A stretch of 64,000 nt of DNA from Candidatus Methanomethylophilaceae archaeon (GCA_944320495.1 CALUHR010000013.1:96001-160000); one strand, 5' to 3'; numbered from the stretch's first letter, positions 4,602-40,105 are shown. Made by a program: numbers and translations. The notes: generated by a model from the letters alone, not told the origin.

Positions 4602-5504
4602 ATGAGGTCCGCGCTCCTGATACTGCCCATCCTTTCGGGTGTGATGTGGGGCGCAGCGGGGATATTCGTCCGCACACTCTCGGAGTACGGCTTCGACGGT
4701 CAGACCATCGCGTTCTCGCGCGTGCTCATCGCCATGGCCATGATGCTCCTGCTGATCCTGGCAACCGACAGGAGGATGCTCTCGTTCAGGAGGCGCGACA
4801 TCTGGCTGTTCGTCCTGTGCGCGGTGTCGATGACGGGGCTGAACGTGTTCTACACCATAGCCGCCGACGAGCTCTCGCTCTCCCTGGCGGCTGTCCTGCT
4901 CAGCCTGTCCCCGGTGTTCATGGTCCTCATCGCCCGCGTCATATTCGGCGAGGCCATCACCAGGCGCAAGGTGTTCTGCATAGCCGTATCCATCGTGGGA
5001 TGCGTCCTGGTGAGCGGATACCTCGAGAACGAATCTACGCTCTCGATGTTCGGCATCGCGTCAGGAATAGTCGCGGCGGTGTTCTACGCCGTCTACGGAA
5101 TAGCGTCGAAGAAGGCCTCCGCCAGCGGCTACAGCGTCTACACCACGCTGTTCTACTGCATGCTGATCTCCATGGTCATCCTGATCCCGTTCTCAGACCT
5201 CGGCATCGTGGCCGACTACGCGGGCGAGGGGGCCTGGGAGATCGGATTCCTGGTACTGCAGGCGGCGGTGGCATCGTTCCTGCCGTACATCCTGTACTCG
5301 GTGGCGATGGCGCGCATCGAGGCGGGCACGGGGTCGCTCCTGGCGGCCTGCGGGGAGCCGGTGGCGGCCGCCGTGTTCGGACTCCTGGTGTTCGCGGAGG
5401 TGCCGAGCCCGATCATGGTTGTCGGCATGGCCCTCGCCATCGGGGCGATGGCCACGATATGCATGAACCCCAAGAGGGAGGGGAACCTCGCGGAGGATCA
5501 TCGA
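4602..5504 (+). CDS. EamA/DMT family transporter (ends at CGA 5502-5504)
   Basis: Duplicated EamA-type hydrophobic halves, 300 aa to the CGA; under the standard code it would run ~210 nt antisense into the GNAT gene. Confidence 0.85.
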
Positions 5505-5971
5505 AGAAGCGGGCGTTCCATCACGATGCGCATGAGGCCGGCCCTTCCGGACTCCCGGAACCCCTTCCTGGAGTACAGCGAGATCGCCCCGGCGTTCCTC
5601 TCGTTGACCTCCAGGACGATCGAACGCGCCCCGGAGGAGCGGGCGATCCCCTCAACGCGGTCGATGGCCCTCGAACCGAGGCCGAGGCCACGGAACCCCT
5701 CGAAGAGGTAGAGCTTGCCCAGGTGCATCGCGTCCCCCTCCATGCCATAGGCGAGATATCCGGCGCGGACCCCGCACACTGTGATCCACTCGTAGACCAT
5801 GCCCTCGGCCATCTGCCTCCTTATGCCCTCGGACGACTGCTCCTGCTCCAGGAACTCGTCGAGGAGATCGTCCGGCACGTATGAGTAGACCTCTCTGAGT
5901 AGGGAGTATGCCAGACCGGAGAGCTCGTCGGCGTCCTCGGGACCCAGGCGCATGAAACCCGCTTCGCTCAA
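5501..5971 (-). CDS. GNAT family N-acetyltransferase (CGA 5503-5501 immediately followed by TGA 5500-5498)
   Basis: KLYLFEGFRGLGLGS acetyl-CoA motif and VNERNAGAISLYSRKGF; start TTG 5971 or ATG 5953. Confidence 0.85.
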
Positions 5972-6515
5972 GCAGCCTGCCCCCATCGTTCCAGTTGCCG
6001 CGGATCAGACCGCGGCGGGTGTCCGAGATGAACGAGTCCAGCCTGCTCCTGTAGGCCTCGGGCCTGTCGCGGTACAGCTGCACGTTCCCGAGCCTCACGC
6101 GGACGTACAGGTCCGGCAGGACCTGGAAGTTCTCCCAGACGACCGGGTCCGCCCTCAGCTCGTCGAGGACCGCCTCGTCCACGGAGAACGACATGTCCGG
6201 TAGGACCGCCCTGCCGGCGTCCGTCATGAGGCCCAGGCGCTCCAGCCTGCGGCAGCGCGCCTTGTTGAGCTCCGTCCATCTCGACCCCTTGCGGGGAGAG
6301 AACCTCTGGACAGTGCCCAGCTCCGGGTCCTTCCTGACCGTGGAATCGATCCAGCCGAAGCACAGGGCCTCCTCGACCGCATCGACGTACGGCAGGATGC
6401 CCGTCTGGGCCTTCGTCCTGTCCACCGCGACCCAACAGCCCCGGGAGGACCGATGGTTGTCCTCCAGCCAGGACCTGAAACCGGCACGGTCCAGGACGAG
6501 GACGTCCTGCTCCAT
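5964..6515 (-). CDS. YdeI/OmpD-associated family protein (ends at CGA 5966-5964)
   Basis: FRSWLEDNH, YVDAVEEALCFGWIDS, RFSPRKGSRWTELNK, GLMTDAG motifs; 183 aa ending NWNDGGRLLE. Confidence 0.85.
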
Positions 6516-7273
6516 CGGATGACCCCCGGTCTGTAGCCGATGTCGAGGATCCCCTCAATGACCCTGCGGACGTCGTCCGACGCCCTGTCGGCATCTTCGC
6601 GGGACATGACCCCTCCGTCCCTAGTCTCGACCATGTGCCAGGAGTGGTCTGCGATGACGATGTCTCCCTCCGCGGAGGCGGCCATGGCGATGTAGTCCCC
6701 GGGCCCCCTCCTGCCCTCGTGCATCGGCCAGAGGTAGGCGGCGATGACCTTGCCCCCTGGATCCCTGGCCTTGTTCACGGGAAACTCGACCATGTCCTCC
6801 AGAAGGAACGGCTCCGACGGGGAGCCCACATCCGTGTAGGACGATGAGTCGTGCCTGATACCCAGGCGGCGCACGGCGCTCAGGACCCTCGCGTCGGCGG
6901 TCATGTACGGCGCACGCGAGCAGACGGGCCTGCCCACCCTGTCGGAGACAGCCGAGAAGGAACGTGCCAGCGTGCCGCGGAGATGGTCATCCCCCAGGGA
7001 AGTCAGGTCCTCGTGGTCGTAGCCGTGGACGCCTATCGAATGCCCGGCGGCGCGTGCGCAGTCTATGACCTCGGAGGTGCGGCCCTCGAAGAACAGCGTG
7101 CCGCGGATGCCGATGCCGTCGAGCAGATCCAGTATCGCGCCCAGACCCCTCTCCGAGGACGAGAAGCGGGGGGCGTCGCCGAAGCCCCTGTCCAGGGACC
7201 CGGCGGCGACCCTCCCCGGGACGCGCACGTTGACGTCCCGGTCTATGTCGGCGGTGTAGTACAGCCGTCTCAT
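6515..7273 (-). CDS. Polysaccharide deacetylase (NodB-like) (ends at CGA 6517-6515)
   Basis: TADID, GTLFFEG, IGVHGYDHE, RAPY motifs; ATGA overlap with AMP phosphorylase and CGATG overlap with the next gene; 252 aa. Confidence 0.8.
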
Positions 7274-8784
7274 TTCCTGACGTTCATGTTGGAGACCCTC
7301 TTGATGAGCATCCCCTCGATGTCTATCGGCGGATACTTGATCGCGGTCTCCCTGGCGCGCCTCAGCTTGGCCTCGTTGTCGGCGTAGATCGTCATGAGGA
7401 CGTCCCCGGCCTCGACCCTCTGACCCTTCTTCTTGTAGATCATCAGGCCGGCACCCTTGTCGTTCGGCGCGCCGGCGGCCTTCGCGATCGCGACGACGTC
7501 CTTGTTGTGGATCGCATGGATGTATCCGGACTTGGACGCCACGATGTCCTCGCTGAACTGCCCGGGCTTCAGGTCCTCGGACTTCAGCTCGGGGCTTCCG
7601 CCCTGGGCGACGACGATCTCCATGAACTTCCTGTGGGCGGCGCCGGACTCCAGGATCTCCCTGGCCTTGGCGGCCCCTCCCGGGATCCCGGCCATGTCCA
7701 GGATGATGCCGGCGCAGTCGCAGGCCTTCTCGATGACGCTTGCCGGGTGCTTCGCTCCCTCCAGGATCGAGATGCACTCCCTCGCCTCGAGGTTGGGTCC
7801 GACGGCGTTGCCGACGGGCTGGTCGGCGTAGGTGATGGCGCACTCGGTGTGGATGCCCAACTTCTCGCCCAGGTCCATCATGTCCCTGGCATAGACACGG
7901 GCGTCCTCGATCGTCGGCACCTTCGTGCCCGTCCCGGTGGGTATGTCCACCAGAAGGTAGTTGGCGCCGATGGCGAGCTTCTTGCTCATGATGGACGCGA
8001 GCATCTGCGCCCTGGGGTTGATGCCGAGCGGGTGCTCTATCTTGATGACGATGTCGTCCACGGGGGCGATGTTCATCCCGCCTCCCCAGGCGAACACGCC
8101 TCCGACCTCCTCGGAGATCCTCTTGAGGCTGGGTCCGTCGAGCTCGACGTCGCAGAACGTCTCCACGAAGTCGGACGTCCCGCAGGCGCTGCTGATGGCC
8201 CTGGACGAGGTCTTCGGGATCATGACGCCGGCGGCCGCCACGATGGAGACCACGATGGGCGTGATCTTGTTCCCGGGGACGCCTCCGAAGCTGTGGAAGT
8301 CGAAGACAGGCTGCCTGTCGAAGGCGATGATGTCACCGGTGTGGGCCATCGATTTGGTGAAGTCGGCGATCTCGTCGATGTCCATGCCGTTGATGTACAG
8401 CGACGTCAGCCAGGCGGACACCTCGATCTTGGAGAGCTTGTTGTCCAGGATGTCGTTGACGATGGACTCGATCTCCTCGCGGGACAGCTTCTCGCCGTCC
8501 ATCTTCCTGCGGATGGAGCGGACGGAGTCCGGCTTGCTGGAGTAGATGACCTCCACCTCGTCCCCCTCGCGGACGGCGCAGCGCTCCATCACCGGGCCGG
8601 GCATCATGACGACGCCCCTCTCGACGAGGGTGTCCGAGCACGTGACCAGGGCGACGGCGCTCCTCGGACCGGAGATGGAGACGCGGTCGTTCTCCTTCAC
8701 ACCGATGGCGGCCGCGTCGTCCTCGTGGATCAGCACAAGGGGCTCTGCGGCATCGAGGTCGTAGTAGCGTGCGATGAGCTTCAT
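7270..8784 (-). CDS. deoA: AMP phosphorylase
   Basis: MKLIARYYD start at 8784; DFHSFGGVPGNKIT, PKTSSRAISSACGTSD, SIMSKK motifs; adjacent to RuBisCO and R15P isomerase. Confidence 0.92.
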   Translation of the reverse strand: MKLIARYYDLDAAEPLVLIHEDDAAAIGVKENDRVSISGPRSAVALVTCSDTLVERGVVMMPGPVMERCAVREGDEVEVIYSSKPDSVRSIRRKMDGEKLSREEIESIVNDILDNKLSKIEVSAWLTSLYINGMDIDEIADFTKSMAHTGDIIAFDRQPVFDFHSFGGVPGNKITPIVVSIVAAAGVMIPKTSSRAISSACGTSDFVETFCDVELDGPSLKRISEEVGGVFAWGGGMNIAPVDDIVIKIEHPLGINPRAQMLASIMSKKLAIGANYLLVDIPTGTGTKVPTIEDARVYARDMMDLGEKLGIHTECAITYADQPVGNAVGPNLEARECISILEGAKHPASVIEKACDCAGIILDMAGIPGGAAKAREILESGAAHRKFMEIVVAQGGSPELKSEDLKPGQFSEDIVASKSGYIHAIHNKDVVAIAKAAGAPNDKGAGLMIYKKKGQRVEAGDVLMTIYADNEAKLRRARETAIKYPPIDIEGMLIKRVSNMNVRK

Positions 8785-10016
8785 GCGGATCCCCACTTGT
8801 CGAGAGCGGCCCTGAGCTCGGGGTGCGTCTCCGCGTACTCCGCCGCGGGGATGCCCTCGAACGCGGCATCCACCGCCTGGCTCATCCCCATCGCACCGGC
8901 GCGGACGCCGCCGGGATGGCCGGCCACGCCGCCTCCCGCCTGGATCTGCACGTTCATGCCGGAGCGCCTGATGATCTCCCCGACCAGTCCGGGATGGACA
9001 CCACCGGAGCACACGGGCATGACCGCCTTGTAGGGCACGTCGTCCCCTAGGCACGCGCGGAGGTTGCTGTCATCGTGGGCCCCCGCGGACATCTTGCCGA
9101 CGCCGAGCGTGCCGATGTGGAGGGCGTCCCCGCCCACCATGCGGACCAGCTTGGTCAGGGCGAGCATGTTCACGCCGTGGAGCGGGTCCTTGGTGAACGC
9201 CCCGTGCATCGTCCTGTGGACGTGTATGGGCACCTTTATGGACGGGTCCTCGGCCAGGGCCTGGAGGCATCCGTATCCGCAGGTGATCACGTCGATCATG
9301 ATCTCCCTGGCGCCCCACCCCTGCACCTTCTCGGCGAGCTCCAGGATGCGGTCGCTCCTGGTGCTGACGTTTACGGCGTGCATCATGTAGTGGCCCTCCT
9401 CCTCCAGGCGGTCGAGGGCCTCGGCCACCTTGACAGTCCTGTCCTCGATGGGGCAGAACGCCTGGTCCACCAGGGTCTCGTCGTCCTTGGAGTTGGTGAG
9501 CCCTCCGGACCCGGCCTCGTAGACGTACTCGGCCGTCTTCTCCGGAGAGAGCCCGATCTTCGGCTTCACGATGGTCCCGACCAGGGGCTTCTCGGGCCTG
9601 TGCAGGGCCTGCCTGATCCCCTCGGCCCCGAACTTGGGACCCTTGAACTGCTCCAGGATGCTCTTCGGGAAGGTCACGTCCTCCAGCCTGACGGCCTTGA
9701 GCGCGCCGAGGCCGAACAGGTTCCCGGCTATGACGCTGAGGATCTGGGGGACGGCGCCGTTCTCGATGCTGAAGTCCTCGGCGGGGAACTCGCAGGTGAC
9801 GATGTCCCCGTCGATCGAGGTTATCCTCGCGCCGAGGGTGTCGAAGATGCCGTGGTCCAGGGTGGAGATCCCGGTCCACGTGCCGGTGGACTGCTCCGCC
9901 GCGATGGCCTCCGCCGCCTTCTCCATCGGAAGGTCGGTGGTGACCCTGTATCTGCAAACGACGTTCCTGTCCGGGTCCTCGGGCTCCCCGAGGTGAAGGT
10001 AAGAATAGCTCTCCAT
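8781..10016 (-). CDS. rbcL: Form III ribulose-1,5-bisphosphate carboxylase
   Basis: Catalytic motifs present: GTIVKPKIG, KDDE, HVHRTMH, LHIGT, VGKM, SGG, GGG; 411 aa. Confidence 0.92.
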   Translation of the reverse strand: MESYSYLHLGEPEDPDRNVVCRYRVTTDLPMEKAAEAIAAEQSTGTWTGISTLDHGIFDTLGARITSIDGDIVTCEFPAEDFSIENGAVPQILSVIAGNLFGLGALKAVRLEDVTFPKSILEQFKGPKFGAEGIRQALHRPEKPLVGTIVKPKIGLSPEKTAEYVYEAGSGGLTNSKDDETLVDQAFCPIEDRTVKVAEALDRLEEEGHYMMHAVNVSTRSDRILELAEKVQGWGAREIMIDVITCGYGCLQALAEDPSIKVPIHVHRTMHGAFTKDPLHGVNMLALTKLVRMVGGDALHIGTLGVGKMSAGAHDDSNLRACLGDDVPYKAVMPVCSGGVHPGLVGEIIRRSGMNVQIQAGGGVAGHPGGVRAGAMGMSQAVDAAFEGIPAAEYAETHPELRAALDKWGSA

Positions 10017-10021
10017 CGAAA

Positions 10022-10948
10022 TCGCTCCCTTGAGAATATCCCGTCGCCCAGCTGCCTCACCATGACGTCATACACCGAGCCGGGACTCATCATGCCCAGC
10101 TCCGTGACGATCGCGTCTATGTACGCGGCGGGGGTGCTGTCGAACACTGGATTGAATATCTTTACCGAGTCGCGGACCTCCCCGGGCCTCACGACCTCGG
10201 AGATTTCGCGCTCCTCTATGGTCACCGAATCGCCGAACATTGTCATCGGCGAGAACTTGTAGGTCTCGGCGCAGGCGTAGAGGTGCACCCTGGCCTCGTG
10301 GGCGGCCAGCGCAAGCTGGGACGTCCCGACCTTGTTGATGAGGGCCCCCTGGGACGTGACGGTGTCGGCACCCACGAACACCTTGTCGACCTTGCGCATC
10401 ACCGAGCGCACCGCGCTGTCGATGATCAGCGTGACGTCCACGCCGGCGTCGGCCAGGTCGTTGACCGTCAGGATGCCCTGCCTCCAGGGACGGGACTCGG
10501 TTGCGTACACCCTGATGTCCTTCCCCTGCCTGTGGGCCTCCTTGATGACGCCTAGGGCGGCGCTGCTGTTGCAGTGCGTCATGATGACATCGCCGTCCTG
10601 GATCCTGCGTGCTCCGATGCGGGCGATCTCCTCCACCGCCCTCTCGGACCTTTCGCAGAATGCCTTCGCGTTGGCCAAGACCAGCGACCTTGCCTCCTCG
10701 AGGGAGGATGCCTCGGACGCGCCCCTGACCGTGGCGTGCAGCCCGTTCCACAGCGAGACCGCGGTGGGCCTCGATGCGAGGATCGTGTCGCTCGCCCCCT
10801 TCAGATCGGCGAGGAACCCCTCCAGGGTCCCCCCGGTGTACGTGTCGGCGAAGTCGCCCAGCGCGGACGCTCCCGCCCTGGCGATCCTCCCGGCCCCGCG
10901 AATCCTCATGCTGCGGATCAGCTCCGCAGTCTCCTCCGCCGTGGTCAC
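10022..10948 (-). CDS. Ribose-1,5-bisphosphate isomerase (eIF2B-alpha-like) (ends at CGA 10024-10022)
   Basis: IRGAGRIA, SRPTAVSL, MTHCNS, TESRP, VGAD, NKVGT, NPVFDSTP motifs; probable GTG start 10948; sequence reads GAG CGA TTT CG ATG(rbcL). Confidence 0.9.
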
Positions 10949-11192
10949 GATGGGGGTATCTCCGACTACCCCTATAAGGACGCGCAATGAGGCCTCGTGA
11001 ATGGACTGGAAATAAAATGCATACGATTGTCTGTGACCAATATGCTTATCCCATCGGCTGTCCATCAGAGATTGCATATATCGGAATCCACGGCCCTTCC
11101 GTTTGCGGATGTCGGGACCCGTGGATGATACACAACTAACACCGTGCATGAAACGTTGCAGTGACGTACGCCGTTGAAATACGATATCGGAG

Positions 11193-11666
11193 GTGGCTCG
11201 GATGACGGAGGATGAGACGATGTCTGAAGACGTGAACAGGCTGATTTCCGCGGTCTCCAAGGCGGCGGGACGCAGATTGGACCCCGACGTGTGGGAGGAC
11301 AGGCAAATCATGAATCATGGATGCCAGATCCTCAACAGGATGGGCCACTTCCCGAGGTTCGATTATGACAAGAATGTCTATGGTCCGTTCTCCTACGAAC
11401 TCAATGACCAGTTTAAAAGGGCGGGGATCGTAGATGACAGCCTCTGTGACATCCCTGTAGAGGACCTCGAGGTTCTCACCATGCTGCTTTCCAAGGGATT
11501 GGACTTCCTGATGGCTTACAACACATTGATTGCAGCATTCGGTTACAATCCGAACAAGAGCCATGAATCCATCAAGGAATGGATCGTGGGAAATGAGCCC
11601 GAATACAAGCGCTATTACGATGAGGCCTTCGAATGGCTGTCAGCTACATCGACACCTGCTATCTGA
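11193..11666 (+). CDS. Putative antitoxin (YwgA/Panacea-like)
   Basis: FDYDKNVYGPFSYEL motif; overlaps the downstream PIN-like gene; lower GC than flanks. Confidence 0.5.
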   Translation: MARMTEDETMSEDVNRLISAVSKAAGRRLDPDVWEDRQIMNHGCQILNRMGHFPRFDYDKNVYGPFSYELNDQFKRAGIVDDSLCDIPVEDLEVLTMLLSKGLDFLMAYNTLIAAFGYNPNKSHESIKEWIVGNEPEYKRYYDEAFEWLSATSTPAI

Positions 11667-12157
11667 TTGCGTTGATAGACCCGACGGACAAGATGCGTTC
11701 GGAGGCCAAGATAGGCCGTGGAAGGGCTGAGAGCATCGTAGGGAACCTCAGATCGTTGAAAGTCCCTCTGCCTGCTTACAGCGAAGCAATCTGCAAAACC
11801 GGGGACTACTATCAGAAAGACAGAGATGCACGCCTGAGACTCTACGAGGAACTGGATCGCCTGAGGAGCAGGGGATTCGTCGAAGTGGAGTACATCAAAG
11901 ACCCAGAGACGCTGAGGCTCGCTTCGGAGATGGCAAGATCACGTACGGATGAACGTGACAAGATGTCGATCATGGATTCCCTGATCATCGCGACGGCGAC
12001 GTCCGATCCGGAATGCAGGACGTTCTACACCACCGATGACAAGTGCCTCCATAACAGCGAAGTCTGGGAGTTGAGCAGAGAGTTCAGGGAGAGACACGAG
12101 TTCGACAACGCGTCGATCTCCGTCCAGATGCTGTGGAAGACCAGAGCCTCTGCGTGA
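11633..12157 (+). CDS. PIN-domain protein (putative toxin RNase)
   Basis: YIDTCYLIAL, MSIMDSLIIATA and FYTTD carry the acidic PIN residues. Confidence 0.75.
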   Translation: MAVSYIDTCYLIALIDPTDKMRSEAKIGRGRAESIVGNLRSLKVPLPAYSEAICKTGDYYQKDRDARLRLYEELDRLRSRGFVEVEYIKDPETLRLASEMARSRTDERDKMSIMDSLIIATATSDPECRTFYTTDDKCLHNSEVWELSREFRERHEFDNASISVQMLWKTRASA

Positions 12158-12658
12158 TTCAAACATAGTACCCAACATCGAGATCTTCCACGGCTCGATG
12201 TGACAGTACCCCCCTGGGTTCCTGTCCAGGTACCTCTGGTGGTACTCCTCGGCCCTCGCCCACTGGGTGAGCGGTCCGCACTCGACATGGAACTCCGGAT
12301 ACCTCGGGGCCTCCCTCGAGAGGACATCTATCACCGTCCCCTCGGACTGGAGATCGGACCAGTAGACCCCGGTCTGGTACTGTATGCCGACGTCGTTCCC
12401 CTGGCGCCTCTCCTGAGTCGGGTCTATCAGGAACAGGAACACCTCCAGGAGGTCCTCCAGGCTCAGGGCCGAGGGATCGTACTCGACGCGCACCGCCTCC
12501 CGGTACCCGAACCTCCCCGAGCACACGAGCATGTAGTCCGGGATGTAGTGGGGGTCGCCATTGGCGTAGCCGCATTCGGTGGAGAGGATCCCGGGGATGT
12601 CCTCCAGCGCCCTCTCCAGGCCCCAGAAGCATCCGCCCGCGAGATGTATGACGCTCAA
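12113..12658 (-). CDS. msrA: Peptide methionine sulfoxide reductase A (first in-frame CGA 12115-12113)
   Basis: AGGCFWG, GYANG, RQGNDVGIQY, AEEYHQRYL, GYCHI; TTG start overlaps the thyX stop. Confidence 0.92.
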
Positions 12659-13311: not shown

Positions 13312-14021
13312 TCCTGTCCCCCCTTCCAGATCATGTCGCGGACCCTGTCCATCCTCTCGCGGTCCATGAGGTCCGCCAGGCGCACCTTGCGCACCTGGGC
13401 GTCGCCCAACAGCCTGCAGATGCCCTCCACGTGCGCGTCCCCGACGATCACGACCATGTTGGAGTGCGTCTTGGCGGCCTCCAGGATCTGCTCGGCCATG
13501 TGCTGGTTGCGCTCGTCGATGAGCTTCCTCACCAGCGTTGGGTACTTCCGGCGCATGCCCTCGATGTAGGCCTCCTCGTTGTCGGCGAAGCTCCTCTGCA
13601 CGCTGGCGACCTTGCGCTTGCCACCGATGTTGTCCGAGATGCCGGAGAGGCGGTAACGTATGCGCTCCTTTGTGGACATCTCCCTCCACATCTCGTCCAT
13701 CACGCGCATGGCGTCCGTGTCAATCGGGATAATCTCGGCGCCCGCGAGCCTGCCGGCGTTCACCGCGGCGAGGAACTCCCCTCCGAGCTGCGCACCGTGC
13801 TCCTCGGACATGCGCTGCTGGTACCTCGCGGTCTGCATGTAGATGGGTGACGGCTCCGGGCCGTCGCCCGACGGTTCCTTCCCCTCGGCCTCGCGGGTCA
13901 TGGCGTTGAGCCTGCCCACATCCAGCTCCAGGAGGACCGCGTCCGGCCAAGTGTTCTTGACGATGAAGGCCACGGGCTCCGCCAGGTTGAACACGTGCCC
14001 GGTGCCCACGATCGTGATCAT
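13308..14021 (-). CDS. TraB/GumN family protein
   Basis: IVGTGHV, VLLELD, GGEFLAA, LIDERNQHMA, VVIVGDAHVEGI; start 14021 or 14042. Confidence 0.85.
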   Translation of the reverse strand: MITIVGTGHVFNLAEPVAFIVKNTWPDAVLLELDVGRLNAMTREAEGKEPSGDGPEPSPIYMQTARYQQRMSEEHGAQLGGEFLAAVNAGRLAGAEIIPIDTDAMRVMDEMWREMSTKERIRYRLSGISDNIGGKRKVASVQRSFADNEEAYIEGMRRKYPTLVRKLIDERNQHMAEQILEAAKTHSNMVVIVGDAHVEGICRLLGDAQVRKVRLADLMDRERMDRVRDMIWKGGQE

Positions 14022-14070
14022 GGTCCGGGGATGCTCAGACATATTAAAGAAAGAATGGATAGGGCGCAGC

Positions 14071-14730
14071 ATGCGCAAGTACGACCTCGTCTGCTTCGAC
14101 ATGGACGGAACCCTCACCACCGTACGCAGCTCCTGGAGATGGATCCACGACTACCTGGGCGTGGACAACGAGCCGTCCTATCAGGCGTTCATCAACGGGG
14201 AGATAGACGAGAACGAGTTCATGCGCAGGGACATCCACCTCTGGATGGAGAACAGGCCCGGGATCACCATCGGCGACATCGCCCACATCTTCCAGACCCT
14301 GCCACTGATCGGCGGAATACAGGAGACCGTCGCCTGCCTCAAGGACAACGGAATCGCCTGCGTCATCGTCAGCGGTGGGATCGACATCGCCGCGAAGATG
14401 CTCGCGGACGAGTTCGGCTTCGACGAGTACATCGCGGACAGCCTCGAGACCGATTCCGAGGGCAGGCTCACCGGCGAGGGTATCAGGAACCTGAACCTCC
14501 GCGACAAGGGGATCAACGTCAGAGGGTACATCGAGAAGTACTTCACGACCCCCGAGCGCACCGTGTCCATCGGCAACTCGTACACGGACATACCGATGTT
14601 CCAGAACTCCGGACTCTCCATCGCGTTCAACCCGACGGACGAGTACACATCGGAAGCGGCCACGCACACCGTGAACTCGGACAACATCGCGGACGTCCTC
14701 GACTTCATCATCGGGGACGGCGAGGAGCGA
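14071..14730 (+). CDS. HAD-IB phosphatase (phosphoserine phosphatase-like) (CGA 14728-14730, TGA two codons later)
   Basis: FDMDGTL, IVSGG, K, IGNSYTD HAD motifs. Confidence 0.85.
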
Positions 14731-14872
14731 TCGTGAACTGATAGCACATCAGGATTGTGTAATGGCATTCGATTAATTTCGTATTGCCATTATGCAAGGA
14801 CGATGCAATCGGATACAGAACAATAATCTCAGAAGGTAATCGGTTTTGAGGAGGGGGAGGTCCCCCTCTCGT

Positions 14873-17821: not shown

Positions 17822-17875
17822 CCGCCTCTTCCGCCCAGGCATCCCCCTTTATACGACCGGACCCGTCCGGAGAAC

Positions 17876-17980
17876 ATGGACAACAATATCGTCATGAAGA
17901 TCGCCGTGAGCGTCTCCGCGGTGACCCTCGTGATATCATCATCCTCGCTGGCGGTCCGCAGGCTGCCGATCCCGGAGTGA
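17876..17980 (+). CDS. Possible 34-aa hydrophobic small protein
   Basis: MDNNIVMKIAVSVSAVTLVISSSSLAVRRLPIPE; TTTATA ~25 nt upstream, GGAGA before ATG, stop 4 nt before the methylase ATG. Confidence 0.3.
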   Translation: MDNNIVMKIAVSVSAVTLVISSSSLAVRRLPIPE

Positions 17981-17984
17981 GACC

Positions 17985-18554
17985 ATGGAGTACGACCCCG
18001 ATGTCAGGATCTACGAGGATCCGGAGGTGTATCCGCCCTCGGACGACAGCATCCTGCTTATCGAATCGCTGGACGTTCATCCTGGGGAGAGGGTCCTGGA
18101 GATCGGGTGCGGATCGGGGGTGGTGTCCATCCACTGCGCCCTGAACGGATGCGACGTCACCTCTGGGGACATCAACCCCCGCGCCGTCGAGCTTACCCGC
18201 AGGAACGCGGAGGCGAACGGCGCCTACATAGACGTGGTGGAGACCGACGTCTACTCCGCCGTGGAGGGGAGGTTCGACACGATAGTGTTCAACCTGCCGT
18301 ACCTCCCGGTCGAGGAGGAGGGACTGCTGGAGAAGGCCTGGTCCGGAGGCCCTGATGGCCTCGGACCTCTGCCGAGGCTCCTGGAGGGAGCGGACGACCG
18401 CCTTCTCCCCGGAGGGAGAGTGGTGGTCGTCGTCTCGTCCCTGATGGACCGCGATGCTCTGGACGGGACCCTCGTGGGCTGGAGCCGGAGGGTCCTGGGG
18501 GAGCTCCCCCTGTTCTTCGAGAGGCTCTATGTCCTGGAGCTCAGGCGTCCGCGA
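17985..18554 (+). CDS. prmC: HemK2/PrmC-type release factor glutamine methyltransferase (ends at CGA 18552-18554)
   Basis: VYPPSDDS, EIGCGSG, FNLPYLP, WSGGPDG; ends FFERLYVLELRRP; 189 aa. Confidence 0.85.
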
Positions 18555-19752
18555 TCAGCTCCTCCGACTGGACCTCGGGGTACGGCTTCGCCGAGAGCAC
18601 GAGCATCGCCGCGTACATCACGGCTATCAGGATGACGTACCAGGACAGGATGTCCAGCACCGCGTGGGTCCCGGGCAGGAGTCCCACGACGAAGTTCGGG
18701 ATGGCCGCCCCGCCGTACGAGGTCAGGTAGATCGTCGAGAACGTCCCCGCCCTCAGCCCCTTGCCAGCACGGGACAGCAGGGCGGTGACCCCTGCGGTGA
18801 AGCCGATGCCCTGGCCTATGCCCGCCACCACGCTGAACACGCAGAACAGCAGGAGGCTGTCGAGGTACGCCAGGGACACATACATCATCACCATCATGAC
18901 GAGGAATATCCCCATGCCCCATCTCTGGGCCTGCCTGGTCTCGAACCTGTTGGAGAAGAAGCTCCCCACCACGTTCGGGAGCAGGAGCGATGTGAACACG
19001 GCGGCTGCGATGAACTGGTTGTGGACGCCGAACTGCTCCGTGACGATGGACGCACTGAACGATTGGGAGAATCCGCCGACCGCCCACGTCCCGATGAAGA
19101 GCATGGCGCAGGCGGCGTAGAGGCGTCCGCATCCCTTCGGGAGCGTGATGCGCGGGACCATGGACCTCAGCAGACCTGGCCTCCTCGGCATGGTCTCCCT
19201 GGCGAACACCACGATCACCGCTATGATGACGATCAGCACCGCTACGGCCTCAAAGTACGAGGTGGGCGAGACGGAGGTGTACGTCATGAGCCCTCCGGAG
19301 ACGAACGCCCCCGTCGACAGCCCCAGCGTCGGGGCGCTGCTGGTGATGGTGGGGCCCACCCATCTGGGCAGGTCCGAGGACAGGTCGACGACGTAGGCCG
19401 CAACGGTGCTCGAGCCGAGACCGCTGGCTATGCCCTGGATGAGCCTCCCGGCCATGATCATCTCCGGGTTGGAAATCATCGCGAAGGTCACCGCGCCGCA
19501 CACCGCGACCATGAGGATGATGATCGTGGCCGGCCTCCTCCCCAGATGGTCGGAGATCCTCGGGAGGAACAACAGCGGGATGACCGTGCCCAGCAGGTAC
19601 CACATGGACACCATGGACAGCTGCGCATGAGTCATGCCCAGCTCCTCCTGCCACATCGAGTACAGCGATATCGGCGATCCCGATGCGAAGTATAGGATGA
19701 CCAGCGCGCCGACAGCACCGACGAAGCTCAACCGGGCCCTCGCGTCCATCAT
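18541..19752 (-). CDS. MFS transporter
   Basis: LPRISDHLGRRP MFS signature, GRLIQGIASG, ~12 TM segments. Confidence 0.85.
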   Translation of the reverse strand: MMDARARLSFVGAVGALVILYFASGSPISLYSMWQEELGMTHAQLSMVSMWYLLGTVIPLLFLPRISDHLGRRPATIIILMVAVCGAVTFAMISNPEMIMAGRLIQGIASGLGSSTVAAYVVDLSSDLPRWVGPTITSSAPTLGLSTGAFVSGGLMTYTSVSPTSYFEAVAVLIVIIAVIVVFARETMPRRPGLLRSMVPRITLPKGCGRLYAACAMLFIGTWAVGGFSQSFSASIVTEQFGVHNQFIAAAVFTSLLLPNVVGSFFSNRFETRQAQRWGMGIFLVMMVMMYVSLAYLDSLLLFCVFSVVAGIGQGIGFTAGVTALLSRAGKGLRAGTFSTIYLTSYGGAAIPNFVVGLLPGTHAVLDILSWYVILIAVMYAAMLVLSAKPYPEVQSEELIADA

Positions 19753-20375
19753 GACCGCCTGATGAAGTCCGTGCGCATCGGGGCCTCGTACTCCGGACGG
19801 GGGACGCCCGCCTGGTCGGCGGCCTCGATGCATCTCATGAGCCAGGCTATGTTCGCCGCCAGCGTCCTCATGGTCTGAAGCCCCTCCTCGTCCTGAGCCA
19901 CGTCCTCGGCCCTCGAACCGTGGACCTGGTTCCAGTACTGGGAGGATGCCACGGGCATGTTGCAGATCGTGAAGTACTTGTTCAGACGGTCGAAGGCCGC
20001 TGAAGCCCCTCCCCTCCTACACGAAACGATCGCCGCGCCGACCTTCCCGCGCATCTTGCCCGAATAGGTGTAGAACAGACGGTCGGCGAATGAGCAGATC
20101 TGCCCAGAGGCGCTGGCGTAGTAGACGGGAGAGCCGAGGACTATGGCGCCGAACTCGTCGAGACGGGAGCCGATCTCGTTGACAATGTCGTCTGTCACGC
20201 ACCTGCCGTTCCTCTTGCAGGCGCCGCACGCCCTGCATCCAGGGGTGTCGTACGGGACCTGCACGATCTCCGATTCGATGCCGCCCTTCGCGAGCTCGTC
20301 GGCGATTTCTTTCAGTGCGGTGTATGTGCATCCGGCGGCGTGGGGGCTGCCGTTGACCAGGAGGACCTTCTTCAT
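19749..20375 (-). CDS. Flavodoxin-like NADPH-dependent FMN reductase / iron-sulfur flavoprotein
   Basis: NGSPH, CRACGAC...C, GSPVYYAS, RRGG, YWNQVHG, DEEGLQTMR. Confidence 0.88.
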   Translation of the reverse strand: MKKVLLVNGSPHAAGCTYTALKEIADELAKGGIESEIVQVPYDTPGCRACGACKRNGRCVTDDIVNEIGSRLDEFGAIVLGSPVYYASASGQICSFADRLFYTYSGKMRGKVGAAIVSCRRGGASAAFDRLNKYFTICNMPVASSQYWNQVHGSRAEDVAQDEEGLQTMRTLAANIAWLMRCIEAADQAGVPRPEYEAPMRTDFIRRS

Positions 20376-20514
20376 AGCCGCTCGATTTTTGGTCGCGATT
20401 ATAAAATCTTCTTTGTTACGCGATGTCAGCAAGGATCGGGGACCCGTATGTGCCAGACATGTCGGGATGACGGATTTCGAGGTGCCCCGGCACGACGGCC
20501 GGGGCGATGGTTTC

Positions 20515-22383
20515 TCACTGCTCCAGCAGCTTCTTGATGGACTTGGTGAGCAGGTCGCTCGCCTGCTTCCCATCGACCTTTCCGCGCAGGGCGCCCATGA
20601 CCGGACCCATCAGCGGACCTACGGATGCCATGCCCCTCTCGCGGACGAAGGCCTCGCGCTCCCTCACAATGGAGTCGATGATGCCCTCTGCCTCCGAGGA
20701 GTCCATGGCGCCGAGGCCGAGCTTGGAGATGGCGGCCTCCGGCTTGGTGCCGGAGCACATCTCCCTCAGGAGGACCGGCAGGGCCTCCTTGGCGAAGCGC
20801 CCGTCCTTCAGGAGGGAGAACGCCTCGATCATGTCCCCCTCGGGGATGGACAGCGGGTCGAGCCCGTCGTGCTCCAGCTCGCCGAAGGTATTCAGCACCG
20901 TCGTGGCGGCGATGGCGGACATCCCGTCGGCGGCGAGCATCTCGAAGAGCTCGTCCAGACCCTTCCTGACGATCTGCCTGGACTGCTGCTCGTTGACGCC
21001 GTAGTCCTTCACGAGACGGGCCTCGATCTGCTCCGGGAACTCGGGCATGGACGCGCGGACGGCGGCCATGCGCTCCTCCGTGATGAGGGTGGGCGGCACG
21101 TCCGTCTCGGGATACATCCTGGCGGCCCCGGGCAGAGGCCTGGAGTACTTGGTGGTCCCGTCCGGGAGCGGGTCGCGGGTCTCCTCCGGCACTCCGACCA
21201 AGGCCTCGTTCGCCCTGGCGACGGCGACCTCGAGGGCCTCGGTGGCCTTCTTCTCCTTGGCGGCGCAGATGACGAACGCGTCGAACTCGGCGGTCATGCC
21301 GAGACGCTCCCTCAGGGCGTCGACGTAGGACTGCTCGATCCCGTAGTTGGGCAGCTCGTCCGAATGGAAGATGCCCTTGACGCCGCGGGTGCGGGCGCGC
21401 TGGGCCATCTCGGACCCGAGCCTGAGGGTCTTGTTGTCCCCGTTCATGACGCCGGCGAATCCTGGCAGGCGCACTGCAATCACCTTGCCCTTGTCCGAGA
21501 GCGCGCCCTTGATGACCTTGGACTCGCAGTCGGCGAATATGTCCGTCACATCCTCGGTGACGAAGTCGACGGGCCTGGTGCCCCTCCCGTTGAGTATGTC
21601 CTTGACACGGATCAGCATCCTCTGCCTGGCGACCTCGTTCCTCACGTAGTCTGGGATGAGCTTCAGGTCCCCGACCCCTTTGAGCTCTATGCGGGCCCCT
21701 CCGGGGATGGAGATGTTCAGGTCCTGGCGGATGGTGCCGATGCCGCGCTTCACACGCCTGGTGGCCCTCAGGAGGGTGCCGATGCGGTACGCGACCTCCT
21801 GGACCTCCTCCGGGGTGCGCATGTCCGGGCCGGTGGCGACCTCGATCAGGGGGATCCCCAGACGGTCCAGCCTGTAGAGGATCTCGTCGCCCTTGGTCTC
21901 GACCTTCCTGGCGGCGTCCTCCTCCAGGCAGACCGACAGGATCGAGATGTCCCTGTCCCCCGCCTTCACGTGTCCGTCGGTGGATATGAGGGCAGTCCTC
22001 TGGAACCCAGAGGTGTTGGACCCGTCGACGACGATCTTCCTCATGAAGTGGATCTCGTCGATGACGTTCGCGCCGAGCATCTCCGAGAAGGTGAGCGCAA
22101 TCTGCATCGCGTCGGGGTTCACGCCGTGGGGCGGCTCCTCGTCCAGCTCCACGAGGCACGAGGTGCCCTCGCAGCACTGGTAGCGGTATCCCATGTGCCT
22201 CTGGAACTGTGCCAGCGCGGCGCGGTCGATCTCGCCCATCTCGCTGGTGGTGGGCCTGAGCTTCCTGAAGTAGGCGCCCTGGCCGTCGTCGCAGAGATGG
22301 CTGTCGCAGTCGCAGAACAGCTTCTTGGTATCGAGCTGCTGGTGGATCTCGATGCCGCACATCATCTCGTAGTCTTCACTCAT
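20515..22383 (-). CDS. gatE: Glu-tRNA(Gln) amidotransferase subunit E
   Basis: GIEIHQQL, KIVVDGSNTSGFQRT, LEEDAARK, DRLGIPLIE, PGAARMYPETD. Confidence 0.97.
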   Translation of the reverse strand: MSEDYEMMCGIEIHQQLDTKKLFCDCDSHLCDDGQGAYFRKLRPTTSEMGEIDRAALAQFQRHMGYRYQCCEGTSCLVELDEEPPHGVNPDAMQIALTFSEMLGANVIDEIHFMRKIVVDGSNTSGFQRTALISTDGHVKAGDRDISILSVCLEEDAARKVETKGDEILYRLDRLGIPLIEVATGPDMRTPEEVQEVAYRIGTLLRATRRVKRGIGTIRQDLNISIPGGARIELKGVGDLKLIPDYVRNEVARQRMLIRVKDILNGRGTRPVDFVTEDVTDIFADCESKVIKGALSDKGKVIAVRLPGFAGVMNGDNKTLRLGSEMAQRARTRGVKGIFHSDELPNYGIEQSYVDALRERLGMTAEFDAFVICAAKEKKATEALEVAVARANEALVGVPEETRDPLPDGTTKYSRPLPGAARMYPETDVPPTLITEERMAAVRASMPEFPEQIEARLVKDYGVNEQQSRQIVRKGLDELFEMLAADGMSAIAATTVLNTFGELEHDGLDPLSIPEGDMIEAFSLLKDGRFAKEALPVLLREMCSGTKPEAAISKLGLGAMDSSEAEGIIDSIVREREAFVRERGMASVGPLMGPVMGALRGKVDGKQASDLLTKSIKKLLEQ

Positions 22384-23674
22384 CGATGGTCCTCCTGTCT
22401 GACATCTCGTCGGCGAGCGGGGTCGCCATCATCTCCCTGGCCTCCTCCGGCGAGGAAGTGTTGGCGAGGACCCACATCAGCTTGACGTAGGCGGTCTCGG
22501 GGAGCATGTCCAGGACGGTGACGACGCCCGCCTTGAGCATGTCCCTGCCAGTGTTGTACACGTTGAGGTTCGTCCTGCCGTTGAGGCACTGGCTCGTCAC
22601 CACGACGACAGTGCCGTTCTCGGTGGCCCTCCTGATGAGGGGGATCATGCCCTCGTTCACGTGACCCAGGCCGGAGCCGGCGATGACGACACCCTTGGAT
22701 TTCATGAAGATGGGCTCGAAGAGCTCCGGGTCCATGCCGGGGTAGTACTGCAGGAGGACGCACGACCTCTCCATGGCGGTCCTGGCGACGGCCTTGCCGT
22801 CCCTGACGGCTGGCCCGTCGGTGCGGACCTCCATCCTTCCGGATGCGTCCAGATGGGCGACGGGGAGCGCGTTGATCGAATGGAACGCGTCCCTGCGGGA
22901 GGTGTGCATCTTCCTCACGCGGGTGCCGAGGTGCACCGCGAAGGAGTCGTCACCGGGGGTGTCGTGCATGACGACGTAGACGCCGGCACGGTCCGCCTTC
23001 GTGGCGAAGCGGGCGCAGGCCATCAGGTTGCTGGACGCGTCCGAGGAGGGGCGGTCCGACGAGCGCTGCGCGCCCACCAGGATGACAGGCTTGGGGACGT
23101 CTCCGAGCATGAAGGAGAGCGCGGCGGCGGTGTAGCCCATGGTGTCCGTCCCGTGGGGGATGATCACCGCGTCGGCGCCGCCGTTGATCTCGTCGGCGAC
23201 GGCCTGGGCGAGCTCCTGCCAGTGGGCGGGGTCCATGTTCTCGGAGAATATCGAGAAAAGGACACGGGCGTCGATGTTGGCGATCTCCCTGATCTCCGGG
23301 ACGGCGTTGACCATGTCGGAGGTGGAGAGCGCGGGGTGGACGGCCCCGGTCCTGTAGTCGACGTAGGACGCGATGGTCCCTCCGGTACCGATGAGGACGA
23401 TCTTGGGCAGACCCTCACGGAACTCCACGGGCTGCTCGGACCTGGTCCTCTGGACGGGCTGCTCGATAACCTCGATGACGGTGGAGTCGGTGATCGCGAT
23501 GCCGACGTTGTATCCGCTCTTGACCTTGAGGATCAGCACGTCCGGCGAGCTGAACTCGTGGTGGGGCATCAGCGTCCCCTCGAAGACCCTCCCCTCCTTG
23601 GAGACCCTCAGCCTGGTGCCCTCGGTGGCACCTATGGCGCTCAGGGTGCCGGAGAGCGATTCGGAATAGCTCAT
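22376..23674 (-). CDS. gatD: Glu-tRNA(Gln) amidotransferase subunit D
   Basis: KSGYNVG, TGGTIASYVDYRTGAV, HGTDTMGY, QRSSDRPSSD, RKMHTSRRDAF. Confidence 0.97.
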   Translation of the reverse strand: MSYSESLSGTLSAIGATEGTRLRVSKEGRVFEGTLMPHHEFSSPDVLILKVKSGYNVGIAITDSTVIEVIEQPVQRTRSEQPVEFREGLPKIVLIGTGGTIASYVDYRTGAVHPALSTSDMVNAVPEIREIANIDARVLFSIFSENMDPAHWQELAQAVADEINGGADAVIIPHGTDTMGYTAAALSFMLGDVPKPVILVGAQRSSDRPSSDASSNLMACARFATKADRAGVYVVMHDTPGDDSFAVHLGTRVRKMHTSRRDAFHSINALPVAHLDASGRMEVRTDGPAVRDGKAVARTAMERSCVLLQYYPGMDPELFEPIFMKSKGVVIAGSGLGHVNEGMIPLIRRATENGTVVVVTSQCLNGRTNLNVYNTGRDMLKAGVVTVLDMLPETAYVKLMWVLANTSSPEEAREMMATPLADEMSDRRTIDE

Positions 23675-23792
23675 GGTTGAGAGTATCTGCACATCTGATA
23701 AGAGGTTTGGGCAGTGCGGTCGGGTTGGACGTCGTGGGATCCGCCTGCGGAGGTCGGGTGCATTTATCATCCCGTAATCGATACATATATTC

Positions 23793-25439
23793 ATGAAGAA
23801 GGTGAACACCAGCGGGCTGTCGTTCCGGGACATCCGCGAGGGAGGGAAGTACTACGTCGACAAATCTCTCCTCATCAAGGACATGCTTGATACGGACGAC
23901 CGTGGGGTCTTCCTCTACACCCGCCCCCGCAGGTTCGGCAAGACCACCAACCTCACCATGCTCGACGCCTTCTTCAACATCGAATACAAAGGGAACACAT
24001 GGTTCGACGGGCTCGCCATCTCCGAACACCCGGACTGCATGTGCCAGATGAGCAGATATCCTGTGATACTCCTCGACCTGAAAGACCTCGCGGCCGAGGG
24101 CAACAACGATTACGGAATCTTCGTATCGAGGGTGAAGAAGGTCCTGAGCGACCTGTACAACCGCTTCACCTACCTTCTCGACTCACCGAGGATCGGTGAC
24201 AGGGACAGGAGGCTCTTCGAATCCGTCCTGTACATGGATGCCGACGAGAACGTGCTCGCGGATGCCGTCAGGGACCTATCCAGGATGCTGCACCTCTTCC
24301 ATGGGGAGCGGACGGTCATCCTGGTGGACGAGTACGACCAGTCGATAACCCAGACGTTCGGCGATGCTTTGCAGGAGCGTGTCATCGGATTCCTGAGACT
24401 CCTGCTGTCCAGCGCACTGAAGTCCAACGGCGACCTCCAGATGGCCTACGTCACGGGCGTGATGCAGGTCGCTAAGGCAGGGTTCTTCTCCGGGATGAAC
24501 AACATCAGCATCAACAACACGTTCTCCGTAGAGTCGGACGAGCGCTTCGGTTTCACCGAACCGGAGGTCAGGGACATCCTGTCGTACTACGGCCATCCGG
24601 AGAAGTTCGACGAGGCGAGGGATTGGTACGACGGGTACCGCTTCGGGGACGCCGAGGTGTACAACCCGTTCAGCATAATGACCTACGTCCAGAGGGGATT
24701 CCAACCGGACAGCTACTGGCGCGACTCGAGCAGGAACACCCCAATGTTGTGGATGCTGGAGAGGGCCGGCGCCATAGGGTTGCAGGCCGTTGCGGACCTG
24801 GTCAACGGCGGGACCATGGTGTCCGAGCTCCATCGGACGGTGAGCTACGACGAGATGAGACTCAACGACCCCGTCGACCTGCTCTCTCTGATGGTCATGA
24901 CCGGATACCTGAACGCCATCCCTAAGGGGGACGGACTCTACGAGCTGTCCGTCCCCAACAGGGAGGCCATGGGCATCGTGGATTCGCTCCTGAGCAGGAA
25001 CAGGCGCATCGGGAACGATGCGTTCGAGAGGTTCAACGCCGCGGTGCTGGACGGGGATGCGGCGGCCATGACGGAAGTCCTCCAGAGCGTCCTCGCCGAT
25101 GGCAGCTACTTCTCGCTGAGGGACGAGTCGTCGTATGAGAACATAGTCCTCACGATGATGCACGGGATGCTTCGCGGGTACAGGATAACCTCCCAAAAGG
25201 AGTCCGGGAACGGGAGAGCGGACCTCGTGCTGGAACTGAGGGACGAGGGGTCCGTTCCCATAATCCTCGAGCTGAAGGTGTCGGACTCGGAGGGCTCCCT
25301 CGATTCCGACGCTGAGAGCGCGATAGCACAGATCCACGACAAGAACTACTATCTCGGCATGAGGGGCGACGTCATACTGATCGGCCTCGCGTTCCGCGGC
25401 AAGCTCGTCCGCGGGAAGGTCGAGAGGCTCCGCCTGCGA
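23793..25439 (+). CDS. AAA-ATPase-like protein with PD-(D/E)XK (PDDEXK_9-like) C-terminus (ends at CGA 25437-25439)
   Basis: YYVDKS, RPRRFGKT, LVDEYD, WYDGY...YNPFS, ESGNGRADL, ILELK, AIAQIHDKNY; ends GKVERLRL. Confidence 0.88.
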
Positions 25440-25492
25440 GGACGGACGCGCAGACCGCCGGCCATTCGGGAAGGGGATGACATGGAGGACCC

Positions 25493-26038
25493 ATGACCGC
25501 GCGCGACGATCCCGACGTCAGGGACAGCAGGCTGATGAGCAGGATACTGCGCCACTGCCCCGAGAGATACGGGGTCGCCCTGGACCGCGACGGGTGGGCA
25601 TCGGTGGAGGGGCTCAGCAGGGGCTCCGGACTCCAGGCGGAGCGCATAATCCGCATAGCGGAGACCAACACCAGGTACGAGCTGTCCCCCGACGGAGGGA
25701 GGATAAGGGCGCTCCACGGCCACAGCGTCGACGTCGGATACGGGGCGCCCGTGTCCCCTCCGGACGTGCTCTACCACGGCACCAGCAGGGAGAACCTGAA
25801 GGGGATCATGGCCTCGGGTGCGATACTCCCGATGAGGCGCACCATGGTCCACCTGTCGGTCTCCGTGGAGAGGGCGGAGGAGGTCGGCAGGAGGCACGGT
25901 GAGCCCGTCGTCATATCCGTGGATGCCAGGAGGATGGCCGGGAGCGGGTTCGAGTTCTTTCTCTCGGGGGACGGGGTGTACCTCACGGAGAGGGTGCCGA
26001 CGGGATACTTCCTGGTCGTGACCGATATGGGGGATCGA
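25493..26038 (+). CDS. kptA: RNA 2'-phosphotransferase Tpt1/KptA (ends at CGA 26036-26038)
   Basis: SRILRH, IRALHGHS, LYHGT, RRTMVHLS, VYLTERVP; 181 aa. Confidence 0.9.
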
Positions 26039-26380
26039 TCGCAGGGTCCTGTCGATCCTGTGTATCTCCTCGTACTGCTCTAGGACCTCGCCGTCCTCGC
26101 GCATCTCGCCGCAGATGATGAAATCGGCGGCCTGCAGATGGTTGGCCACCCTCGTCCCGCCGGGGGTGATCGTGTAGAACCTCGTGACGTGCTTCCCCGT
26201 CTCGAGGTATGTGTCGGCCATTCCCAGCTCGACGAGCCTGCGGCCGATCCTGGAGGCCGTGGTGTAGTTCGAACCGAACCTGTAGAGGTCGCCCTCCTTG
26301 ATGCGGCCCTTGTAGCTCAGAAACATGATGGCATCCGCTATGTACCTTTCCGACAACGGGGATACATCGTTGCGTGCCAC
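26039..26380 (-). CDS. Small winged-helix DNA-binding protein (ends at CGA 26041-26039)
   Basis: HTH-like core TTASRIGRRLVELGM followed by wing FYTITPGGTRVANHL; 113 aa; its stop abuts the kptA stop. Confidence 0.6.
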
Positions 26381-40104: not shown

Positions 40105-40105
40105 A

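Follow-up and report, generated by a model that had tools for sequence, protein, structure and literature searches.

In the archaeal genome to which the window analysed here belongs (a 64,000-nucleotide stretch, C13:96001-160000, of the G000 assembly, which comprises 1.77 Mb in 14 contigs with 62% GC), the arginine codon CGA very probably serves as a stop codon, with the release factor aRF1 as the probable agent, and the palindromes on which convergent genes meet would be a by-product of this usage as opposed to a device. An earlier note on the window had taken CGA to be a gene terminator, and both coding signal and orthologue ends do fall at CGA; as judged from these, and from a distribution of convergent overlaps that is repaired when CGA is read as a stop, the codon appears to be the end of about a fifth of all genes in the genome. 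Genes were called with a purpose-written simple caller, such that start positions are approximate, whereas gene cores were set by coding signal independently of the genetic code, and provided the basis for 241 convergent neighbour pairs. Assignment of genes to tail-CGA classes rests on the first CGA beyond the mid-point of the coding core. Throughout, the standard reading refers to code 11, against which the CGA-stop reading was compared. Relatives were used as non-independent samples, comprising G004 (1.41 Mb used, 59% GC), which belongs to a different genus of the same family and is the sole outgroup examined in depth, and small samples of four congeners (G031, G042, G052 and G016), whose placement in the same genus was made by tool.

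The distribution of CGA along genes was examined in 867 coding-type stop-to-stop open reading frames (ORFs) of G000. From the first to the last decile, in-frame CGA codons numbered 630, 296, 72, 33, 4, 5, 6, 32, 61 and 238, while the AGA control was flat across the same deciles, at about 100-130 in the interior. The interior rate of CGA is no more than 0.4 per 1000 codons. Rarity by itself is no proof of a changed meaning, since CAA, TTT and TTA are equally scarce inside G000 genes, and it is the pile-up in the last decile that is distinctive. Coding signal was then expressed as codon log-odds, with CGA scored as zero, and the point at which the signal ends was located for each ORF. Among the 333 ORFs that have a CGA in the second half, the signal ended a median of 0 codons from the first tail CGA (interquartile range -2 to +3), but a median of 22 codons (75th percentile 94) short of the standard stop. 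In the control set of 1099 strong ORFs without a second-half CGA, the signal ended a median of 1 codon ahead of the stop. A tail CGA is present in 389 of 1634 G000 genes (24%), or in 18% if the CGA is required to match the signal end.

GC bias was considered as a cause of CGA avoidance and ruled out, because a low-GC island within the window (Table 1) is likewise without CGA in its gene bodies. The genes of this island contain 344 arginine codons, 112 of them AGA, with zero CGA within gene bodies; five of its six in-frame CGAs are located in the tails of two genes and the sixth is ahead of a likely start. The island encodes several GT2 glycosyltransferases, a UDP-glucose dehydrogenase, an NAD epimerase, a radical SAM/SPASM enzyme, a UbiA-like protein and an AMP-binding enzyme, and was probably acquired horizontally.

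Comparison with the outgroup places the ends of these genes at the same point. The genes of G004 are themselves nearly free of CGA (0.08 per 1000), and the corresponding decile counts of 410, 131, 27, 2, 5, 3, 2, 2, 1 and 14 show almost no accumulation at gene ends; a second-half CGA occurs in 29 of 1333 genes, in most cases internally or directly ahead of a standard stop. Orthologues were defined as reciprocal best hits between G000 and G004, of which there are 996. For the 204 CGA-ending genes the C-terminus of the G004 protein fell a median of 0 residues from the G000 CGA, and within 3 residues of it in 73% of cases, but a median of 26.5 residues short of the G000 standard stop. As a control, the ends of genes without a tail CGA agreed to within 3 residues in 84% of 751 cases. 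The stop codons found in G004 at the positions of G000 CGA were TGA in 129 cases, TAG in 11 and TAA in 8. Truly internal, conserved CGA codons were encountered only twice in about 1,000 orthologue alignments, namely at codon 78 of the aRF1 gene and at codon 184 of a gene encoding a two-domain protein. In the latter, the CGA is located at the domain linker, the outgroup protein is continuous, and 92 of the 155 aligned columns beyond the CGA are identical; the gene may either be split at this codon or be read through.

The consequences of the two readings are most apparent where genes converge. The earlier note had argued that, without CGA as a stop, the convergent pairs of the window would need long antisense overlaps, and when the distribution of overlap lengths was compared genome-wide, as the note had proposed, it changed drastically between the two readings. 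Overlaps of more than 30 nt affect 35% of all 241 G000 pairs under code 11 and 5% with CGA as a stop. Where neither gene has a tail CGA (n = 108) the value is 5% under both readings; where one gene has a tail CGA (n = 103) it falls from 50% to 6%; and where both do (n = 30) it falls from 93%, with a median overlap of 610 nt and a maximum of 3084 nt, to 7%, with a median of 0. The 230 convergent pairs of G004 include 4.3% with overlaps of more than 30 nt, which differs from G000 under code 11 with a p value of about 4e-18, and in the small congener samples the code-11 overlaps look normal. The standard reading of G000 would appear, then, to give hundreds of bases of false antisense overlap.

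Under the CGA-stop reading the spacing of convergent genes shows a spike at zero, with 28 of 241 pairs abutting as YGA/TCR and 0-5 pairs at each of the neighbouring spacings. These junctions comprise 12 of CGATCG, 15 of CGATCA or TGATCG and a single TGATCA, such that 27 of the 28 include at least one CGA. In G004, 35 of 230 pairs abut, 33 of them on TGATCA, and the frequencies in the two genomes (11.6 and 15.2%) do not differ (p = 0.28). The congener samples contain 2-6 abutting pairs each, nearly all on TGATCA, and exact abutment on TGATCA accounts for 12-24% of convergent pairs across the family. The abutting spike is not, therefore, a product of the new code, since G004 and the congeners show it too; from these comparisons, CGATCG appears to be the CGA version of a family-wide TGATCA arrangement, which was inherited and not made by the code change. 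Each half of the hexamer varies independently of the other, with the 12/15/1 split fitting a 70% share of CGA per end. Of eight convergent pairs conserved between G000 and G004 only one abuts in both, indicating that the junctions are fluid and not inherited site by site. TGATCA is over-represented genome-wide, with observed/expected ratios of 2.7 in G000 and 3.9 in G004, whereas CGATCG, at 1.18, is not enriched. A possible cause is a 'hard wall' effect, by which the antisense in-register frame of a high-GC gene would be nearly devoid of standard stops and loss of a stop would be costly.

Overlapping, as opposed to abutting, palindromes proved to be of little account. The earlier note had likened the TCGA on which the EamA-family transporter and GNAT acetyltransferase genes of the window both end (5501-5504) to the shared stops of the TTAA type. 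Both CGAs are in frame there and overlap by 2 nt, but the notion of a recurring device does not hold: the TCGA form occurs in 3 of 241 pairs, in two of which the coding signal does not end at CGA, leaving one credible case, and in the congener G042 the EamA and GNAT genes do not share stops but are separated by a 5-nt gap. The TCGA at EamA/GNAT is incidental, a solitary case of two CGA codons that by chance share two bases. Convergent overlaps of 4 nt on YTAR are also absent from G000 (0 of 241 pairs), compared to 19 of 230 pairs in G004. As a separate observation, there is strong avoidance of CTAG in G000 and G004 alike (observed/expected 0.07-0.09), and TAG stops are scarce in G000, ending 18 of approximately 1,600 genes as against 100 of 1333 in G004.

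CGA ends are not distributed evenly among genes. Where the neighbour is convergent, 27.5% of genes end at CGA, compared to 15.9% of those with a same-strand gene next (odds ratio 2.0, p = 4.5e-7), and among genes whose end has shifted relative to the outgroup the share is 26%, compared to 15% of those whose end falls at the same residue (p = 5e-5). The share of CGA among stops is 70% at abutting junctions and about 50% at YGATG stop-start overlaps, of which there are 86 with CGA and 85 with TGA genome-wide in G000; use of YGATG is the coupling arrangement expected from a true stop codon. In true intergenic cases the base in the position after the stop (+4) is U in 46% and A in 6% of CGA ends, versus 29 and 28%, respectively, of TGA ends (p = 5e-4); abutting junctions and YGATG overlaps always give U there. 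In non-coding frames CGA occurs at 35 per 1000 and TGA at 17 per 1000. It may be that, at tight junctions with a rapid turnover of gene ends, new stops are taken from the sequence available, which would there mostly be CGA, and that ancestral TGA elsewhere is replaced slowly, or is perhaps kept because CGA is the weaker signal. The U at +4 that tight convergent junctions invariably provide, being the base preferred after CGA, may be a second reason for the excess of CGA at them. The earlier note had further suggested that certain CGA stops are backed by a nearby TGA in the manner of tandem stops. A standard stop is indeed enriched in the codon immediately following (+1), where 8.1% of CGA ends have one, compared to 3.0% of standard ends (odds ratio 2.9, p = 2e-4), but there is no clear excess at the +2 and +3 codons, and an alternative reading of CGA-TGA is a C-terminal arginine followed by a stop, such that support for backup stops is weak.

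Every coordinate in the earlier note was verified against the window, including the in-frame positions of the stops at each junction. Its family names are backed by Pfam for EamA, GNAT, KptA, FUSC_2, Zn-PLC, the MTS-type methyltransferase, MFS and HAD, the exception being 'wHTH', the basis of which is an EarA-like match below the cut-off. Coordinates of the genes concerned, and of other features referred to in the text, are collected in Table 1.

Table 1. Positions of genes and other features; those without a contig prefix are numbered from the first nucleotide of the window.
Feature	Coordinates	Strand	Remarks
PLC gene	1825-2616	+	TGA 2614-2616; Pfam Zn-PLC
FUSC-family membrane protein gene	2621-4522	-	CGA 2623-2621; Pfam FUSC_2
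EamA-family transporter gene	4602-5504	+	In-frame CGA 5502-5504; Pfam EamA/TPT, residues 7-285
GNAT acetyltransferase gene	5498-5986	-	CGA 5503-5501, then TGA 5500-5498; Pfam Acetyltransf_1
MsrA gene	12113-12652	-	First tail CGA 12115-12113
HAD hydrolase gene	13843-14736	+	CGA-TCG-TGA at 14728-14736
MTS-type (prmC-like) methyltransferase gene	17985-18554	+	CGA 18552-18554
MFS gene	18541-19833	-	TGA 18543-18541
Second KptA/Tpt1 (RNA 2'-phosphotransferase) copy	25493-26038	+	CGA 26036-26038; Pfam PTS_2-RNA, residues 7-166
CGATCG junction, kptA/wHTH-like	26036-26041	both	Two abutting predicted CGA stops, zero gap
Small wHTH-like gene, about 113 aa	26039-26380	-	CGA 26041-26039
Low-GC island	39000-53450		47% GC in a 62%-GC genome; surface-glycan type cluster
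GT2 glycosyltransferase gene (in low-GC island)	51677-52993	+	First tail CGA at codon 439
Two-domain gene (G000)	C13:193618-194694	-	Internal CGA, codon 184
tRNA-Arg(UCG) (G000)	C13:413317-413390		74 nt
aRF1 gene (G000)	C2:85936-87165		Single copy; in-frame CGA, codon 78

The individual junctions illustrate the same pattern. Under code 11 the EamA gene runs on to TAG at 5709-5711, an additional 69 codons antisense to the GNAT gene, and the sole match to this extension is antisense GNAT. Homologues of the family, the open frames of which are about 300-320 aa long, match residues 1-294 only, and the orthologues have TGA exactly at the CGA position (G016) or within a few codons of it (G042 and G031). 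Signal that continues for 46 codons beyond the CGA was considered as evidence of read-through and rejected, since the frame is antisense to GNAT and the third positions of the two coincide, an arrangement that imitates coding sequence; the end of EamA is settled by the homologue ends. On the opposite strand, the GNAT orthologue in G042 terminates at CGA in the same position and is followed by 20 codons free of standard stops, which indicates that CGA, rather than the adjacent TGA, is the likely working stop of the G000 gene. The kptA and wHTH-like genes, described in the earlier note as ending back-to-back, do so in frame and without a gap. Matches to KptA homologues stop at residues 170-186 and the coding signal ends 4 codons ahead of the CGA, with the code-11 end being TAG at 26081-26083. 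The wHTH-like gene would be extended by 230 codons under code 11, antisense through the entire kptA gene. Homologues, found in 10 genomes and having open frames of 97-169 aa, align to residues 6-105 alone, and the extension has a single match, to the kptA orthologue of G052 in antisense.

At the FUSC/PLC junction the FUSC CGA is separated from the PLC stop by the 4-nt gap noted previously, compared to an 80-nt overlap if the gene is taken to its code-11 end at 2537. Orthologues of FUSC end within 1-5 codons of the CGA point, with TGA in G042, G004 and G016 and with CGA in G052. Similarly, the prmC-like gene does overlap the MFS gene by 14 nt with the CGA stop, as against 95 nt under code 11; the corresponding codon is TGA in its G004, G031 and G016 orthologues, and 14-nt convergent overlaps are a common class in both G000 and G004. 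The CGA-TCG-TGA reported at the end of the HAD gene is present, although the true end is ambiguous, the CGA and TGA differing by two residues. A pair absent from the earlier note involves the GT2 glycosyltransferase gene, which extends under code 11 to TAG at 53431 and so overlaps a convergent gene (53149-54312, minus strand) by 283 nt. Of the convergent pairs in the window, that of MsrA is the least clean, since the first tail CGA is 20 codons past the end of the coding signal and still leaves an overlap of 45 nt with the convergent gene ending at 12157.

The components that might read CGA were also examined. The tRNA set of G000 is of archaeal type, with arginine anticodons GCG, UCG, CCG, UCU and CCU. 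The cloverleaf of tRNA-Arg(UCG) is intact save for an A-A mismatch in the anticodon stem, at the pair that borders the loop, and that of the outgroup (75 nt) has a stem mismatch at another place. In each of the five genomes of the G000 genus, codon 78 of the aRF1 gene is CGA; it corresponds to a conserved arginine, encoded by CGC in the outgroup. One or more in-frame CGAs occur in all 30 aRF1 orthologues examined from the family, mostly within the N-terminal domain and at positions that vary by genus: 11 (g15 and g8), 25 (g3, g7 and G004 of g5), 78 (g1), and others. The release factor and CGA may, on this evidence, be linked throughout the family, although the presence of the codon can be called improbable only in g1 and g5, the genera in which the CGA background was measured; a crude background derived from the longest ORFs in small loci was discarded, having given 3.6 per 1000 compared to 0.08 from the careful estimate in the same genus. 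The NIKS and YxCxxxF motifs of aRF1 are identical in G000, the congeners and G004, with no substitution specific to G000.

A scheme that accommodates these observations is one in which CGA is read as a stop by the single aRF1, as the most likely agent, in competition with the retained tRNA-Arg(UCG). Termination at CGA would be context-dependent and perhaps somewhat leaky, and feedback on aRF1 synthesis could feasibly operate through the in-frame CGA of its own gene. Convergent in-register genes would be packed until their stops touch, as TGATCA across the family, and with CGA in place of one or both TGA in the G000 lineage, as CGATCG, CGATCA or TGATCG. The fuller form of this proposal, in which CGA is a context-dependent fourth stop captured after it had vanished from genes family-wide, aRF1 is tuned by its own CGA, and convergent ends display the capture best, seems reasonably likely, though less assured than termination at CGA as such. 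A parallel exists in bacteria, where RF2 is autoregulated through an in-frame UGA in prfB, by means of a +1 frameshift. As with aRF1, the release-factor gene carries in frame the codon on which its factor would terminate; RF2 differs in its use of a frameshift, since for aRF1, in which regulation is putative, it would be enough that tRNA-Arg reads through the codon.

It is very improbable that the standard code applies unaltered, with CGA as a very rare arginine codon and the long, unconserved C-terminal extensions truly antisense to the facing gene. The presence of tRNA-Arg(UCG), the reading of the aRF1 CGA as arginine, and the equal scarcity of CAA, TTT and TTA in gene interiors are all compatible with this explanation, but it leaves coding signal and orthologue ends falling at CGA, extensions that match only the antisense of the neighbour, and 35% of convergent pairs overlapping by more than 30 nt where controls have 4-5%. 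Moreover, CGA is equally rare in G004, without the pile-up at gene ends. C-to-U editing of mRNA, converting CGA to UGA under the standard code, has in its favour only the one-base relation between the two codons and is just as improbable; to our knowledge, no archaeal mRNA editing has been described. Frame-blind editing was rejected on the basis of alignments, in which the standard amino acid stands opposite NCG codons with equal frequency whether the next base is A or another (for GCG, alanine in 56.7 versus 57.7% of cases, and Val-like residues in 5.1 versus 5.6%), while editing confined to individual sites is improbable but compatible with the DNA.

Two further explanations are unlikely, albeit less remote. 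In one, CGA is unassigned, and ribosomes that stall upon it are released by a rescue pathway (Pelota/aRF1-like) as opposed to regular stop recognition. This explanation is in keeping with the near-disuse of CGA in genes across the family, even where it is rarely a gene end, and yeast provides a precedent for stalling and rescue at CGA (PMC7379694, PMC3753928). However, about one fifth of genes, conserved housekeeping genes included, would need rescue for their normal release, tRNA-Arg(UCG) has been kept, and both the +4 bias and the equal use of CGATG and TGATG overlaps resemble ordinary termination and coupling. The other explanation, which is slightly less probable again, holds that CGATCG, TGATCA and TCGA are functional DNA or RNA elements, such as bidirectional transcript-end signals or methylation sites, selected as units. 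The genome-wide excess of TGATCA and the sharpness of the abutting spike would be expected of such elements, but the independent variation of the halves, the non-recurrence of TCGA sharing and the lack of genome-wide enrichment of CGATCG would not, and selection of the hexamer as a unit is disfavoured because the same gene pairs seldom abut in both genera.

Several observations weigh against CGA being a stop codon in G000. A normal-looking tRNA-Arg(UCG) is kept, such that CGA has a decoder and the expected loss of the tRNA has not taken place, and with conserved internal CGA codons in aRF1 and one other gene, read-through must occur at least there. The 24 ends that consist of CGA-TGA are equally explicable by a C-terminal arginine. 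The trait is also uneven, in that tail-CGA genes amount to only 2-9% in the four congeners: 9% in G052 (11/124), 5% in G042 (7/140), 3% in G031 (11/330) and 2% in G016 (2/97), the last being the same proportion as in the outgroup. Finally, the whole case is built from sequence statistics and from gene calls made with our own simple caller. The near-absence of CGA within genes is, nonetheless, common to G000, the four congeners and G004; CGA would have gone from genes first, with graded use at gene ends after, which is the order predicted by codon capture.

Sense-to-stop changes are familiar from organelles, as in NCBI tables 2, 22 and 23, where AGA and AGG in vertebrate mitochondria, UCA in Scenedesmus and UUA in Thraustochytrium serve as stops. 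A sense-to-stop code in green-algal mitochondria is the subject of one published account (PMC6551751). In these codes, as in G000, an amino-acid codon is lost from gene interiors and present at gene ends; G000 differs in being a free-living archaeon with about 1,600 genes, in which the tRNA is kept and CGA still encodes arginine in at least aRF1. The geometry of the convergent junctions is that of other compact genomes, where stops overlap by 4 nt on TTAA, CTAA or CTAG or abut on TGATCA, of which the kptA/wHTH-like CGATCG is the CGA form, but G000 is distinguished by the presence of CGA in nearly all abutting pairs, by the lack of the 4-nt YTAR class and by the paucity of TCGA.

The closest archaeal case concerns two hydrothermal-vent assemblies in which CGA is absent from recognisable protein domains and for which a stop was raised as a possibility, using a method that, according to the author, is unable to infer stops (bioRxiv 10.64898/2026.04.02.715157). 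Those archaea belong to another lineage, are reported to lack tRNA-Arg(UCG) and also read CGG as tryptophan, and that report contains no analysis of gene ends (bioRxiv 10.64898/2026.04.02.715157). In yeast, one study proposes that eRF1/eRF3 misreads CGA as if it were UGA (PMC7379694), which resembles the present proposal in that a release factor of the eukaryotic/archaeal type acts on CGA; in yeast, however, the event is one of error or rescue that occurs on repeats of rare codons, unlike the normal gene end envisaged in G000. A search of the literature found no description of a CGA stop for Methanomethylophilaceae or Methanoprimaticola. The genome-wide convergent test, the TGATCA ancestry of the junctions and the much lower use of CGA ends in four congeners are new.

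If CGA is indeed a stop in G000, the public annotation of the genome would be systematically wrong, with approximately one fifth of genes carrying a false C-terminal tail, and many small facing genes, such as that encoding the wHTH-like protein, lost or fused into antisense ORFs. Profile-based predictors of genetic codes are, as their authors state, unable to detect stops, and the distribution of convergent overlaps provides a simple means, independent of annotation, to screen other genomes for codes of this kind. The change would be, as far as could be found, the first sense-to-stop reassignment outside organelles, and the graded use of CGA ends among the relatives of G000 would represent the kind of intermediate series that codon capture predicts and that is rarely seen.

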